Assembly (NCBI GenBank): GCA_963662795.1 | Contig: OY759746.1 | Span: forward strand, 350,331 to 374,330 | Reading direction: 5' to 3' | Length of the DNA stretch: 24,000 nucleotides | From: Spirochaetia bacterium | Lineage (GTDB): Bacteria; Spirochaetota; Spirochaetia; CADAEX01 | Shown: one piece after another, positions 8,162 to 11,350 of the stretch | Layout of the letters: each line of letters begins with the position of its first letter | Position numbering within the stretch: the stretch's first letter is position 1 | Position numbers and translations under genes: made by a program | The notes under the pieces: generated by a model | The model's database searches: none | What the model saw: the letters and a program-made list of their open reading frames with translations, nothing else | What the model was told of the DNA's origin: nothing

Positions 8162-8650
8162 ATGAATACCAACATATTATCCGAATTCAGAAATTCCATC
8201 AGAAGGATTGAACGTTTTCTGTTTGCAAGTATCAAGGATGACGGGACATGCTGCGGAGTTACTTTCAATGAATGCCATATTCTCATGGAAATAGATAAAA
8301 ACAGAAAAATTGTTATGAAAGATCTTGCCGACACCCTCGGCATGGATAAGAGCATAATAAGCAGGTCAGTTGAGGTAATGGTCAGAGATGACCTTATCAG
8401 CAGGGAAGAACTGACTGATGACAGAAGGAAAAAGAACATAGTACTGACCGGTAACGGAAAAAAGAAAGCGGATTCGATAAATAGTTATATGAACTTAAAA
8501 TATTCTGAACTGTTCAGTTCAATGAATGATGGAGAAGTGGAAAAAGTTATTGAATCAGCAAAAACACTTGCTGACCTGTTTGACAAATGGGTTTTATTAA
8601 ATGAAAAGTCAGACTGCTGCCGGGGTGGAAATAATGGATGCTGTAATTAA
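8162..8650 (+). CDS. MarR-family winged-helix regulator with vicinal cysteine pairs; putative thiophilic metal or metalloid sensor
   Basis: MarR core: TFNECHILMEIDKNRKIVMKDLADTLGMDKSIISRSVEVMVRDDLISREELTDDRRKKNIVLTGNGKK. It has an N-terminal CC (GTCCGV) and a C-terminal CCRGGNNGCC tail (codons at 8615-8644). The 3-prime end overlaps the hgcA start. Confidence 0.8.
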   Translation: MNTNILSEFRNSIRRIERFLFASIKDDGTCCGVTFNECHILMEIDKNRKIVMKDLADTLGMDKSIISRSVEVMVRDDLISREELTDDRRKKNIVLTGNGKKKADSINSYMNLKYSELFSSMNDGEVEKVIESAKTLADLFDKWVLLNEKSDCCRGGNNGCCN

Positions 8651-9638
8651 TAAACTTGAAGGCAGATGGGGAATAAAAGATTACCTTGGGACAATTATGT
8701 GCCGGCTGGGAATAAGAAGGCAGTATTATTCACAGAAACCAGGGCTATATTCCATTGGGAATCCTGATAACAAATCGCCTGTTTTTGTAACTGCCAATTA
8801 CAAATATTCGATAGATGTTCTCCGCAGGGCCGTAAAAAATACAGATTCATGGATCCTTGTTATTGATACAAAAGGAGTAAATGTCTGGTGCGCTGCGGGA
8901 AAAGGGACTTTTGGAACAGCTGAAATAATCAGCAGGGTAAATAAAACAGGACTTAAAGATGCAGTTTACCACAGGACACTTATTCTTCCCCAGCTCGGGG
9001 CTCCCGGAGTAGAGCCGGGAGAGGTAAGAAAAAATACAGGGTTCTCTGTTAAATACGGACCGGTTGAAGCAAATGATATCCCTGAATTCATCAGTAACGG
9101 ATACACTGCGGACAGAAAAATGAGAACCAAACAGTTCAAACTCAGGGAAAGGCTTGCAGTATCTCTTACGCATATGGTCCAGGGTCTGTTGCCAACAGCA
9201 GCGATAGCCCTTTTTTTTGTTCTTAGTGATTTTCTTTTTTCTTTCAAGGGTAATTTCGGTTTTACCGGGTTTCTTTCAATAAATATCCTTGCCTCACTGT
9301 CAGCGTTACTTGGAGGAACAGTTATCGCAGGAGCACTGCTGCCTTTACTTCCCGGAAGGGCTTTTTCCATGAAGGGCTTTTTCATAAGCATTCTTTTTGC
9401 ACTGTTCTTTTTTCAGATAATCAATTCATATTCCTCCCCTCTTTTTATTTTATATACAGGTGGTAAAATGCTGATTCTTTCAGGATGGATTGTGTATCTT
9501 GTCCTCAACCTGACAGGCAGCAGCACTTATACTTCTCTTTCAGGCGTTAAAAAAGAAATGGCGATTTCAATGCCGTTGATTACTGCAGGATCCTTTGCCG
9601 GATTATCAATGATCATTACAGGGGGAATACTCTTATGA
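8634..9638 (+). CDS. hgcA: HgcA, corrinoid protein of the mercury methylation system
   Basis: The diagnostic cap-helix motif NVWCAAGK lies at 8880-8903 (Cys codon 8889-8891), within SPVFVTANYKYSIDVLRRAV...WILVIDTKGVNVWCAAGKGTFGT...LILPQLGAPGV. The C-terminal half is a multi-pass membrane domain with LLPLLPGRAFSMKG. The ATG at 8634 has GGTGG upstream; an alternative ATG is at 8601. Confidence 0.85.
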   Translation: MDAVINKLEGRWGIKDYLGTIMCRLGIRRQYYSQKPGLYSIGNPDNKSPVFVTANYKYSIDVLRRAVKNTDSWILVIDTKGVNVWCAAGKGTFGTAEIISRVNKTGLKDAVYHRTLILPQLGAPGVEPGEVRKNTGFSVKYGPVEANDIPEFISNGYTADRKMRTKQFKLRERLAVSLTHMVQGLLPTAAIALFFVLSDFLFSFKGNFGFTGFLSINILASLSALLGGTVIAGALLPLLPGRAFSMKGFFISILFALFFFQIINSYSSPLFILYTGGKMLILSGWIVYLVLNLTGSSTYTSLSGVKKEMAISMPLITAGSFAGLSMIITGGILL

Positions 9639-9961
9639 CCTATATAAAAAATGTTGCCACACTTGAATACACAAAAGAAAAATGCACAGGATGCGGCATG
9701 TGTGCAACTGTATGCCCTCACGGTGTATTTCATGTAACAGGCGGAAAAGCAGAAATAATTGACAGGGACAAGTGCATGGAGTGCGGCGCATGCATGATAA
9801 ACTGCCCGGAAGGAGCACTAACGGTTAAGCAGGGAGTAGGCTGCGCCTATGCAGTAATAATCTCAAAGCTGAAAAGGCGGGATACAATAAGCTGCGACTG
9901 CGACAGTGATAATCCCCAGGCTCAAAACTGCTGCGGTGGAGGCAGCAGCAGCTGCTGCTGA
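9635..9961 (+). CDS. hgcB: HgcB, 2x[4Fe-4S] ferredoxin partner of HgcA with a Cys-rich C-terminal tail
   Basis: An ATGA overlap with the hgcA stop indicates translational coupling. It has two CX2CX2CX3CP motifs (CTGCGMCATVCP, CMECGACMINCP) and a C-terminus ISCDCDSDNPQAQNCCGGGSSSCC that ends in a vicinal CC, as in known HgcB. Confidence 0.85.
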   Translation: MTYIKNVATLEYTKEKCTGCGMCATVCPHGVFHVTGGKAEIIDRDKCMECGACMINCPEGALTVKQGVGCAYAVIISKLKRRDTISCDCDSDNPQAQNCCGGGSSSCC

Positions 9962-10312
9962 GTATTACCTGGTAAATTAGCCCAATCGCGCAACACATTA
10001 CTTTGAATATTTGAAAAATATCCACGGATAGTTTTTACTGCAGTATTGACGTATCGCAGCTTACTGTTCTGCCTGCTTTTCGGAAAAACACAACTTAATC
10101 CTTCTTTGGTATCCTTAAAAACAACATCACCGGTGCAATGAATTAATCCATTAATAAAGATGCGTGCAGGACGACAAAGGCTTTTATAACCATGCCCTTA
10201 AGTTTGTCAGTTTTTTTCTCTTCCATAACCCATGCATACTGGCAGTATCTTATTGACTATATATGGCTTTTTTGCCAAATTACCAATAATTACTTAAAGA
10301 AGGAGATTAAAC

Positions 10313-11350
10313 ATGCCGGAGAAAAAAATCGGCTTCTTCGCCAGATATCTGACTTTGTGGGTAGCTGCATGTATCATTCTTGGTGTTGTTACAGGTGTTT
10401 TATTCCCCCGGTTTCCAAAACTGCTCGGAGTAATGGAATATGCCAATATTTCAATTCCAGTAGCAGTCCTGATCTGGCTAATGATTTATCCAATGATGCT
10501 GAAAGTTGATTTCAGGAGTATTATTGACGCCGGGAAGAGACCCAGGGGACTGATTATAACCCTCATACTAAACTGGCTGATCAAACCTTTTACCATGTAT
10601 TTCATTGCCTGGTTTTTTCTGAAAGTGGTTTTCAAGGCATTTATACCTGATTCCCTTGCTGCTGATTATATTGCCGGCGCTGTATTATTGGGTGCAGCTC
10701 CCTGTACCGCCATGGTTTTTGTCTGGAGTTATCTGTCTGATGGCGACCCCGGATATACAGTTGTTCAGGTAGCAGTAAATGATCTCATCATTCTTTTTGC
10801 CTTCGCCCCAATTGTGGCCTTTCTTCTCGGCGTCAGCAATGTAAAGGTGCCTCTGGATACCCTTTTCCTTTCTGTTGTACTTTTCGTTGTAATTCCTCTT
10901 GCTGCAGGTTTTTCAACAAGAACAATACTCCTGAAAAAGCACAGTAAAGACTGGTTTGAAAATATATTCTGTAAAAAATTCGAAGGGATCACAGAAGCAG
11001 GTCTGCTTCTCACCCTGGTAATTATCTTTTCATTTCAGGGAGAGATAATCCTTTCAACCCCTTTGGCCATTGTTTTAATCGCAATTCCATTAATTATTCA
11101 GACCTACTTTATTTTTTTCCTTGGTTTTGGATGGTCAAGGATCTGGAAGGTCCCTTATAAGGTTGCAGCTCCTTCAGCCCTGATCGGCGCATCAAATTTC
11201 TTTGAACTGGCCGTGGCGGTAGCCATCAGCCTGTTCGGTTTATCATCAGGCGCAACCCTGGTGACAGTCGTAGGTGTTCTGGTGGAAGTTCCTGTAATGC
11301 TGAATCTGGTTAAAATAGCAAAATCCGCAAAAAACAGATTCCCGTTGTGA
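10313..11350 (+). CDS. acr3: ACR3-family arsenite efflux transporter
   Basis: AAGGAG RBS. Typical ACR3 sequence: FFARYLTLWVAACIILGV, IWLMIYPMMLKVDF, LLGAAPCTAMVFVW (conserved Cys), VNDLI. About 10 predicted transmembrane segments. Confidence 0.9.
   Translation: MPEKKIGFFARYLTLWVAACIILGVVTGVLFPRFPKLLGVMEYANISIPVAVLIWLMIYPMMLKVDFRSIIDAGKRPRGLIITLILNWLIKPFTMYFIAWFFLKVVFKAFIPDSLAADYIAGAVLLGAAPCTAMVFVWSYLSDGDPGYTVVQVAVNDLIILFAFAPIVAFLLGVSNVKVPLDTLFLSVVLFVVIPLAAGFSTRTILLKKHSKDWFENIFCKKFEGITEAGLLLTLVIIFSFQGEIILSTPLAIVLIAIPLIIQTYFIFFLGFGWSRIWKVPYKVAAPSALIGASNFFELAVAVAISLFGLSSGATLVTVVGVLVEVPVMLNLVKIAKSAKNRFPL

Follow-up and report, generated by a model that had tools for sequence, protein, structure and literature searches.

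Gene content and organization of the hgcAB locus

The present study concerns a 24,000-nucleotide stretch of DNA from a Spirochaetia bacterium (assembly GCA_963662795.1, contig OY759746.1, positions 350,331 to 374,330 of the forward strand), which is referred to as the window throughout, and within it a block of four genes on the same strand that encode a cysteine-rich MarR-type regulator, the corrinoid protein HgcA, the ferredoxin HgcB, and Acr3, for which an arsenite efflux function is predicted. Why microbes keep hgcAB and what switches these genes on are questions that limit how well the formation of methylmercury can be predicted. The features of the locus are collected in Table 1. It was compared with related loci, which are designated by L numbers; the closest are those of L094, a sister genome (3.86 Mb) that is 99% identical, and L001, a Spirochaetales metagenome-assembled genome (MAG; GCA_024233785.1) that is 87-96% similar, both of which share the locus and its flanks. 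The organism itself is uncultured and belongs to the Spirochaetales.

Table 1. Features of the hgcAB locus, with positions in the window.
Feature	Position	Strand	Description	Basis
tRNA-Pro(GGG)	7778-7852	+	left slot boundary	ARAGORN; Rfam tRNA, 65 bits
Partial tRNA-Pro 3'-end copies, direct orientation	7916-7933, 8001-8018, 8030-8051	+	three copies	repeat search
Operator-like palindrome	8107-8125	+	TAGTTTACATTATCAACTG; abuts the -35 box; family consensus TAGTTG-N7-CAACTA	
Promoter-like site	8126-8155	+	TTGACA (8126-8131), 18 nt, AATCAT	consensus scan, 10/12
MarR-type regulator	8162-8650	+	162 aa, cysteine-rich	Pfam, structure profile, predicted fold
Motif CCGVTFNECH	8249-8278	+	Cys30, Cys31, Cys38, His39; candidate metal(loid) site	
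Regulator C-terminal tail CCRGGNNGCC	8615-8644	+	two Cys pairs; overlaps the hgcA start	disordered in the model
hgcA	8634-9638	+	corrinoid protein, 334 aa	NCBIfam NF040863
HgcA cap-helix motif NVWCAAGK	8880-8903	+	residues 83-90 (Cys86)	
HgcA C-terminal membrane domain	9165-9635	+	residues 178-334	Kyte-Doolittle hydrophobic segments
hgcB	9635-9961	+	2x[4Fe-4S] ferredoxin, 108 aa	NCBIfam NF040864
hgcB-acr3 spacer	9962-10312	+	351 nt	
acr3	10313-11350	+	ACR3-family arsenite efflux permease, 345 aa	NCBIfam TIGR00832
attR-like copy of the tRNA-Pro 3' end	11411-11440	+	30 nt, 87% identical, 19-nt identical core TTCAAATCCGGCCAGCCCG	
TrmO-like gene	11445-11834	-	129 aa, limited to the N-terminal domain; right flank, conserved	Pfam TrmO_N

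The identities of HgcA, HgcB, Acr3, and the MarR-type regulator rest on matches far beyond chance. HgcA scored 359.4 bits against the NCBIfam model HgcA_corrinoid (cut-off 275, model positions 3-322 of 325), in contrast to 216.7 bits against the model for HgcAB-like fusion proteins (cut-off 285) and 78.5 bits against that for the gamma subunit of the corrinoid/Fe-S protein (CFeSP; cut-off 306). In its cap-helix motif, N83, V84, W85, C86, A88, G89, and K90 were invariant in an alignment of 37 HgcA sequences, and the C-terminal membrane domain was called by hydropathy alone, which is a crude method. HgcB scored 116.4 bits against HgcB_ferredoxin (cut-off 99) and carries two CX2CX2CX3CP motifs (9683-9718, residues 17-28, and 9773-9808, residues 47-58), followed by Cys70 and the tail CCGGGSSSCC with its terminal CC; this double C-terminal cysteine pair was found in the window and in L001, the CC-x6-CC spacing being that of the window. 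Acr3 scored 386.7 bits against TIGR00832 (cut-off 282.8, model positions 2-327 of 327), as against 36 bits versus 326 for the bile-acid symporter model, and its translation shows the motifs APCTAMV and FFELAVA.

An earlier interpretation of this region, which was made from the sequence and its open reading frames (ORFs) and is referred to here as the sequence-only reading, had described these four ORFs, a 17-nt overlap between the regulator gene and hgcA, an ATGA overlap between hgcA and hgcB, and a 351-nt spacer before acr3. All of these were recovered, and the scores given above bear out its gene names, including HgcA in preference to the CFeSP-type alternative that it had raised. Its proposal of a tightly coupled regulator-hgcA-hgcB unit also held: the overlap from the hgcA start to the regulator stop codon recurs at 17 nt in L001, L003, and L009, with near-equivalent overlaps in L005 and L012, the reading frames of hgcA and hgcB overlap at 9635-9638, and both of the overlapping starts are accompanied by Shine-Dalgarno sequences. 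The hgcA ORF opens at 8601, and the start at 8634 is preferable because the Shine-Dalgarno sequence GGTGGA lies 7 nt upstream of it and because the database protein P0001, which is 100% identical and encoded on a 3.93-Mb contig, and most homologues are also 334 aa long. The second-closest HgcA match, from a Spirochaetales MAG, was 87% identical.

According to a preprint by Haft et al. (2022), most HgcA proteins have an N-terminal extension with PCUGP (Cys-Sec) or CC, and the CC motifs of HgcB, and of HgcA in other lineages, are thought to handle Hg. An N-terminal cysteine extension was not found in the HgcA of the window, in which an in-frame stop codon (TAA, 8598-8600) lies upstream and zero cysteines precede the core. 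It is missing throughout the spirochaete clade, including L003, L009, and L012, whereas most of the other regulator-linked HgcA proteins from metagenome loci carry CC, CGC, or CCC 25-45 residues before the core. The extension is not part of the curated HgcA model, and its absence is compatible with membership in HgcA.

A cysteine-rich MarR subfamily upstream of hgcAB and arsM

The regulator passed the Pfam models MarR_2 (PF12802; 45.8 bits, cut-off 27) and MarR (PF01047; 36.9 bits, cut-off 24.6), and no ArsR/SmtB-family model was among its Pfam and NCBIfam matches. Its profile matched solved MarR structures in the PDB (E about 1e-11). The AlphaFold model (predicted local distance difference test, 80.9) has the standard MarR fold of six helices plus wing, and its Foldseek neighbours were MexR, HpaR, and AdcR, each at a probability of 1.00, as well as ZitR. 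The best curated NCBIfam match reached 38 bits against a cut-off of 125, and the subfamily is without a curated model. In the predicted fold, the Cys30/Cys31 pair is placed in the alpha1-alpha2 loop, with Cys38 and His39 at the start of alpha2.

Searches of increasing breadth place this protein in a large family. A word-indexed search returned nine relatives only, every one on a contig that also carried the HgcA clade; in their alignment, DG-x-CCG-[VI]-[TS]-FNECH was invariant and the tail was rich in cysteine. A scan of genome contigs with very specific peptide patterns gave six loci, one of which was an unrelated gammaproteobacterial MarR. A profile search of 1.84 billion representatives returned 860 cluster representatives at E <= 1e-10, and among the best 149 of them CC-x6-CH was present in 103 and a CC within the last 30 residues in 62. 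In an alignment of 50 sequences with identities of 26-57%, C30, C31, G32, and C38 were invariant and H39 was at least 90% conserved. Many family members have a fourth conserved cysteine in an INxxCNxxY stretch, at which the regulator of the window has Met. A related plasmid-borne MarR of Clostridium felsineum, with the motif CSGVTISQCH, adjoins an ars operon.

Most family members end with a single C-terminal CC, and the double cysteine pair in the tail of the regulator occurs only in this spirochaete clade. The clade with two cysteine pairs in the overlapping tail is the same as that lacking the N-terminal cysteine extension of HgcA, which raises the question of whether a candidate shift of the gene boundary moved a cysteine-rich stretch from HgcA to the regulator. 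A programmed +1 frameshift that would fuse the regulator to HgcA at AAT-TAA was considered and rejected, as there was no suitably placed stimulatory element; it was also disfavoured by the C-terminal CC tails of family members far from hgcA.

The genes beside members of this family were examined in a scan of metagenomes with the pattern CCG[VI][TS]xx[QE]CH, in which at least 550 relatives were confirmed among the first 600 matches and the best 80 were kept. Directly downstream and on the same strand, 61 of these 80 loci had hgcA, mostly followed by hgcB, and nine had arsM (NF008823, 298-373 bits, cut-off 263), while the contig ended too early in the other 10; no gene other than hgcA or arsM took this position in any of the 70 evaluable loci. 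In a neighbor-joining tree, the arsM-linked regulators were nested within the hgcA-linked ones at two places, and their tails (LLSGCCRGQCS) matched those of the hgcA-linked L034 and L085, findings that suggest the exchange of one sensor type between arsM and hgcAB operons. Because the family alternates between these two operons, we infer, as the most economical guess, that its ligand may be either As(III) itself or a methylated form of it. The sequence-only reading had been correct in assigning the regulator to the MarR rather than the ArsR type, and the arsenic link that it proposed gained support from the 61 hgcAB and nine arsM partners, which is stronger support than the adjacency of acr3 by itself provides.

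In one of the arsM-linked loci, L090 (2903-5762), the gene order is regulator, ArsM, a small protein, and Acr3 (456 bits). The protein between ArsM and Acr3 is 119 aa long and has the Fe-S domain found at the N-terminus of the CFeSP gamma subunit; L090 is an arsenic operon borrowing a piece of the protein family from which HgcA descends.

As defined here, the Cys-motif MarR subfamily has CC-x6-C(H) before helix 2, TAGTTG-N7-CAACTA upstream, and hgcA or arsM as the next gene; the regulator of the window has the motif at residues 30-39, a palindrome matching at 10 of the 12 positions, and hgcA directly downstream. The sequence TAGTTGACAAnAnCAACTATTGACA was conserved upstream of the regulator gene in the alignment of all clade loci. 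Across the family, the consensus palindrome was matched at 10 or more of the 12 positions in 52 of 59 upstream regions as compared with three of 295 control windows, and the candidate operator stands at a fixed distance from the regulator gene that is common to hgcA-linked and arsM-linked loci. Only one other site in the window matched to this extent, inside the transposase gene, and the same scan found no copy before acr3. The adjoining promoter-like site is a consensus match only, and its proximity to the ATG implies that the leader may be very short or lacking. A palindrome beside a TTGACA box fits an autoregulated pair of repressor and operator.

The regulator-hgcA-hgcB triad was present in every Spirochaetota locus recovered (L003-L006 and L009-L012), and the gene after hgcB varied. 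acr3 follows hgcB only in the closest relatives of the window (L001, L094, and L013); none of the clade relatives L003, L005/6, L009-11, and L012 has it beside hgcAB, nor does any of the 61 hgcA-linked metagenome loci. An ArsC-type (thioredoxin-type) reductase follows hgcB in L005/6 (162 bits, just under the cut-off of 174), and proteins with 40-47% identity to it by tblastn are encoded just after hgcB in L043, L049, L065, and L072. Unrelated genes follow in L012. The conserved unit is therefore regulator-hgcA-hgcB, not the four-gene block, and acr3 is a lineage-specific neighbour or passenger rather than a conserved partner. The sequence-only reading had called the exporter physically attached, which is correct for its position on the same strand after hgcB and does not extend to its being an integral part of the unit.

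acr3 has its own Shine-Dalgarno sequence, AAGGAG, plus -35-like boxes, and a 196-nt insert in the spacer (10041-10237) is absent from L001 and unique, without a match among the sequences compared. A consensus scan found no terminator-like site between hgcB and acr3, there was no stable fold after hgcB (z = +1.4), and no Rfam family or riboswitch was found in 7000-12000 except for tRNA. Read-through from hgcAB into acr3 is conceivable because no terminator was seen; it is possible but unsupported.

The combination of a regulator, hgcAB, and arsenic genes, which the sequence-only reading had set apart from the ND132 locus, is an already published picture, of which the window is one more instance. 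Figures 4 and 6 of McDaniel (2020; PMC7438021) show hgcAB flanked by acr3, arsC, arsM, or arsR in MAGs, and according to the same article, 112 genomes have a conserved "putative transcriptional regulator" as the immediate upstream neighbour of hgcAB, whereas no hgcA was found near mobility markers. In Fig. 4c of Peterson (2025; PMC11984097), "arsR-like" regulators precede hgcA in many cases and acr3 or arsC is close by, and Zhang (2023; PMC10349881) noted MarR regulators upstream of hgcA in the cultured methylators Dethiobacter alkaliphilus and Geobacter daltonii. The MAG neighbourhoods in these articles share the order of the window, namely, regulator, hgcA, hgcB, and then an arsenic gene; the Cys motif, operator, and arsM-linked branch of the regulator family do not appear to be described in them, and the regulator of McDaniel (2020) may or may not belong to the Cys-motif MarR subfamily. 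In a literature search, the name "hgcR" was not found in use for such a regulator.

The tRNA-Pro slot

The block is bounded on the left by tRNA-Pro(GGG), and in L001, L019, and L094 the cassette is likewise preceded by this tRNA gene. The three partial copies of its 3' end that follow are set in a duplicated unit of about 70-85 nt, and the 18-mer AATCCGGCCAGCCCGAAT is matched exactly at 8030-8047, for which 0.04 matches were expected by chance. On the right, 60 nt past acr3 and 5 nt short of the stop codon of the convergent TrmO-like gene, the attR-like copy repeats the tRNA segment 7822-7851 in direct orientation. Decayed right-hand copies are present at the same place in L001 and L013, the tRNA-bounded architecture is also found in L094, and the repeat adjoins the TrmO-like gene in L001, L008, and L013 as it does in the window. 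The TrmO-like protein scored 89.6 bits, just under the cut-off of 93.25, and is one of a large family whose members are comparably short (585 matches), which makes it unlikely to be the actual tRNA methyltransferase.

What the slot contains appears to differ between genomes. In L008, the repeat and the right flank are conserved (TrmO-like protein 85% identical, methyltransferase 79-82%), whereas different cargo with a Cys-less MarR lies to the left of the repeat, and homology to the window starts at the repeat core, 11421; the L008 contig ends after 420 nt. The left side of the slot is also variable, as a hicBA pair lies between the tRNA and the regulator in L001 and none is present here. We regard it as an even question whether the repeats and junction are the signature of site-specific integration at the tRNA, in which case the block may be an integrase-less islet. 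Like tRNA-targeting islands, it combines an intact tRNA, a direct partial copy of the 3' end on the opposite side, cargo that appears to vary between relatives, and a toxin-antitoxin pair in the slot of L001; it differs from them in spanning only about 3.6 kb, in having no integrase or mobility gene and no contrast in composition, and in that neither an empty site nor an excision product was seen.

tRNA genes also lie 270-490 nt upstream of regulator-hgcAB, on the same strand, in L004 (tRNA-Trp, 2116-2188) and L048 (two tRNA-Glu, 189-405). Downstream copies of the tRNA 3' ends were not found at these two loci, and a general association of regulator-hgcAB with tRNA genes is not claimed.

Regulation, origin, and native role of the locus

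Taken together, we consider it probable that the regulator, hgcA, and hgcB form an autoregulated operon with acr3 as a looser neighbour, and that the block was acquired or reshuffled at tRNA-Pro. A repressor dimer would bind the palindrome abutting the -35 box and shut off its own promoter. Binding of a thiophilic ligand at Cys30, Cys31, and Cys38, and possibly also at His39 and the C-terminal cysteine pairs, would release the repressor, upon which hgcAB would be expressed. As(III) or methylated As(III) species appear to be the most likely ligands, with Hg(II) and Sb(III) also possible, and acr3 may be expressed too by read-through. Site-specific integration is the most likely route by which the block was acquired or reshuffled because tRNA-Pro(GGG) bounds it on one side and a 30-nt copy of the 3' end of this tRNA on the other; the integrase may since have been lost or may act in trans.

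The closest experimental precedent is Pseudodesulfovibrio mercurii ND132, in which an ArsR-type regulator controls hgcAB and is arsenic-responsive (Gionfriddo et al., 10.1101/2022.10.17.512643; AEM 2023), as the sequence-only reading had noted. The two loci share a winged-helix, cysteine-rich regulator directly upstream of hgcAB; in ND132, arsR2 is co-transcribed with hgcAB, the expression of which responds to arsenic, and the authors suggested a link with horizontal transfer. The same study listed regulators beside hgcAB in Spirochaetes MAGs. The regulator of ND132 is an ArsR/SmtB protein (PF01022) with Cys47/49/86/88, whereas that of the window is a MarR protein with CC-x6-CH and a C-terminal CC; no ars gene lies beside hgcAB in ND132, whereas acr3 follows here, and the overlapping frames of the regulator, hgcA, and hgcB are a further feature by which the window differs from ND132.

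Other known systems resemble parts of the locus. A vicinal cysteine pair plus a third cysteine is the pattern of the As(III) S3 sites in the ArsR proteins of R773, Acidithiobacillus ferrooxidans, and Corynebacterium glutamicum. The regulator of the window shares with such As(III)-sensing repressors this cysteine arrangement beside the DNA-binding domain, a predicted autoregulation, and a position upstream of arsenic genes; they have the ArsR/SmtB fold as opposed to the MarR fold here, and the candidate site would therefore be convergent. With AdcR and ZitR, MarR-family members that coordinate a metal with protein side chains, it shares the fold (Foldseek 5jls, 5yhx, and 6fi9). AdcR and ZitR bind Zn via His, Glu, and Cys, and the metal activates their DNA binding, whereas the candidate ligands here are three cysteines and a histidine, the partners are hgcAB or arsM, and derepression would be expected. 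As in canonical ars operons (arsR-acr3-arsC), a metal(loid)-type regulator is followed downstream by an ACR3 permease that scores above the equivalog cut-off; in contrast to them, there is neither ArsR nor ArsC, and hgcAB and the 351-nt spacer stand between regulator and permease.

Several points weigh against the operon-and-slot interpretation. The co-regulation of acr3 is its weakest step, as no operator precedes this gene and it is missing beside hgcAB in every other lineage sampled. Since HgcA is without the Cys-Sec or Cys-Cys extension at its N-terminus, its model score alone does not warrant the assumption that it is competent in methylation. The three cysteines and histidine of the regulator might just as well hold Zn or an Fe-S cluster, bind Hg(II), or serve as a thiol redox switch. 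Regarding the slot, no integrase was found in the 24-kb window and no mobility gene in 7853-11440, and the GC content of the cassette is not distinctive. TrmO-like homologues tried for an empty site led to L008 (P0130), to L013 with acr3 (P0131), and to an unrelated context (P0138), and an unoccupied tRNA-Pro/TrmO junction was not found among these contexts. HgcA and the regulator cluster with other Spirochaetota, and the event may therefore have been a transfer within the phylum or a mere rearrangement of the slot. Finally, a class I S-adenosylmethionine (SAM) methyltransferase gene is convergent directly after hgcB in L003 and L009-11, and its relative in the window lies outside the right boundary, an arrangement that fits an older chromosomal neighbourhood equally as well as an islet.

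Several of these points are those on which another account of the slot would build, in which the tRNA-like repeats are relics that bear no relation to the acquisition of hgcAB and the locus is an old, vertically inherited one in a recombination-prone region near tRNA-Pro. The nearest relatives of HgcA and the regulator are all from Spirochaetota, no flanking repeats accompany the tRNA genes beside regulator-hgcAB in L004 and L048, and hgcA was not found on viral contigs in IMG/VR or plasmids in PLSDB. Set against this account are the direct orientation of the 30-nt copy on the 3' side of the tRNA with its 19-nt identical core, the further partial copies behind the tRNA, the different cargo and left arm at the same junction in L008, and the variable left side, with a hicBA pair in L001 and none in the window. 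We hold it to be possible and doubt it. An alternative that touches the ligand and leaves the operon intact is that the regulator is not an arsenic sensor; it may contain a Zn or Fe-S site, sense Hg(II), act as a switch for thiol redox state or electrophiles, or respond to a metabolite of the methyl cycle, S-adenosylhomocysteine (SAH). A response to SAH would suit arsM and hgcAB alike, both being methylation systems, and ArsR2 of ND132 also responded to SAH-raising treatments (Gionfriddo et al., 10.1101/2022.10.17.512643). The MarR Zn sensors AdcR and ZitR as well as thiol-oxidation switches are among the structural neighbours, the fourth conserved cysteine of many family members fits a four-ligand site, albeit with Met in the window, and the CC motifs thought to handle Hg in HgcB, and in HgcA of other lineages, are similar to that of the regulator. 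This alternative appears rather unlikely to us because hgcAB and arsM are the only downstream partners found, acr3 or arsC recurs in the neighbourhood, and the three cysteines resemble the S3 sites of ArsR.

More far-reaching is the view that the four genes constitute one functional cassette, co-transcribed and co-selected, with metalloid or thiophilic-metal detoxification rather than Hg methylation as its native job; the sequence-only reading had hypothesized a native role in metalloid or thiophilic-metal stress, and it is as a hypothesis that we regard this role. The four genes are on the same strand and within the same repeat-bounded block, and neither a terminator-like site nor a stable hairpin was seen from hgcB to acr3; the arrangement is retained in L001, L094, and L013, and the regulator family is arsenic-associated, L090 having the regulator, arsM, and then acr3. 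We judge a single cassette of this kind to be unlikely, given that acr3 is not beside hgcAB in the other clade members or in any of the hgcA-linked metagenome loci, that a 196-nt insertion or deletion separates its 351-nt spacer from that of L001, and that it has its own Shine-Dalgarno sequence and -35-like boxes and no operator. In addition, the deletion of hgcAB in ND132 left arsenic resistance undiminished (Gionfriddo et al., 10.1101/2022.10.17.512643). A role for HgcAB that is unrelated to either Hg or As, such as reductive dehalogenation of halomethanes, would turn the arsenic genes into bystanders. Halomethanes were proposed as the native substrate in a 2026 preprint (10.64898/2026.04.26.720869), in which CCl4 was reportedly dechlorinated by heterologously expressed HgcAB and growth was supported in model methylators, and the HgcA of the window is without the N-terminal Cys-rich extension thought to handle heavy metal. 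However, dehalogenation leaves unexplained why the regulator alternates between hgcAB and arsM and why arsC and acr3 recur next to hgcB, and we consider it improbable.

A bolder synthesis, to which we attach a similarly low probability, is that a Cys-rich MarR sensor of arsenite or methylarsenite has been swapped between arsM and hgcAB, that HgcAB is a corrinoid-dependent counterpart of ArsM acting on arsenic or some other soft metalloid with Hg methylation as a side reaction, and that the block is the remnant of an integrative element, which would make it the first physical vehicle seen for a horizontal spread of hgcAB that has long been suspected. Less ambitiously, the autoregulated operon proposed here provides a testable handle, namely, a large MarR subfamily that has three invariant cysteines in its motif and a palindromic operator of defined sequence and that, in the evaluable cases, always stands directly before hgcAB or arsM. 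If its regulator senses As(III), arsenic, not mercury, would determine the expression of hgcAB across many uncultured lineages, and if the tRNA-bounded block is mobile, it would offer a concrete mechanism by which hgcAB came to be distributed patchily.

The regions around the slot contain further variable elements. The SAM methyltransferase is encoded at 11902-12690 (-) in the window, at 11816-12535 in L003, and at 9290-10006 in L009; the latter two are 30-32% identical to the copy of the window over their full length and 57% identical to each other, and the best NCBIfam match, far below its cut-off, was the corrinoid-protein-associated CpaM. An IS4-like DDE transposase with DUF4372 is encoded at 13587-14744, 3.6 kb past hgcB and outside the slot, and L094 is without 1268 bp beside it (12220-13487, part of the methyltransferase and a CAP-domain gene), which suggests a deletion or insertion adjacent to the insertion sequence. 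In L008 (775-7488), a 1632-aa DEAD/UvrD helicase and a methyltransferase-HNH protein are encoded beside the conserved methyltransferase, the counterpart in the window being the CAP gene, the transposase, and an HNH gene; these make up a second variable region, which may be a defence island. A toxin-antitoxin system of the MntA/HepT type lies at 6331-7186 (-) as a 230-aa ORF with both domains plus an 80-aa ORF; it corresponds to a single 284-aa gene in L001 and to a pair of distinct genes in L094, and frameshifts or decay may account for these differences. A hicAB pair is present at 18146-18750 (-), and the hicBA pair inside the tRNA-Pro slot of L001 (8824-9242) is a different one. A cation-efflux gene of the CDF family and a VIT1-family iron/manganese transporter gene at 20201-22032 are further metal-handling genes in the vicinity.

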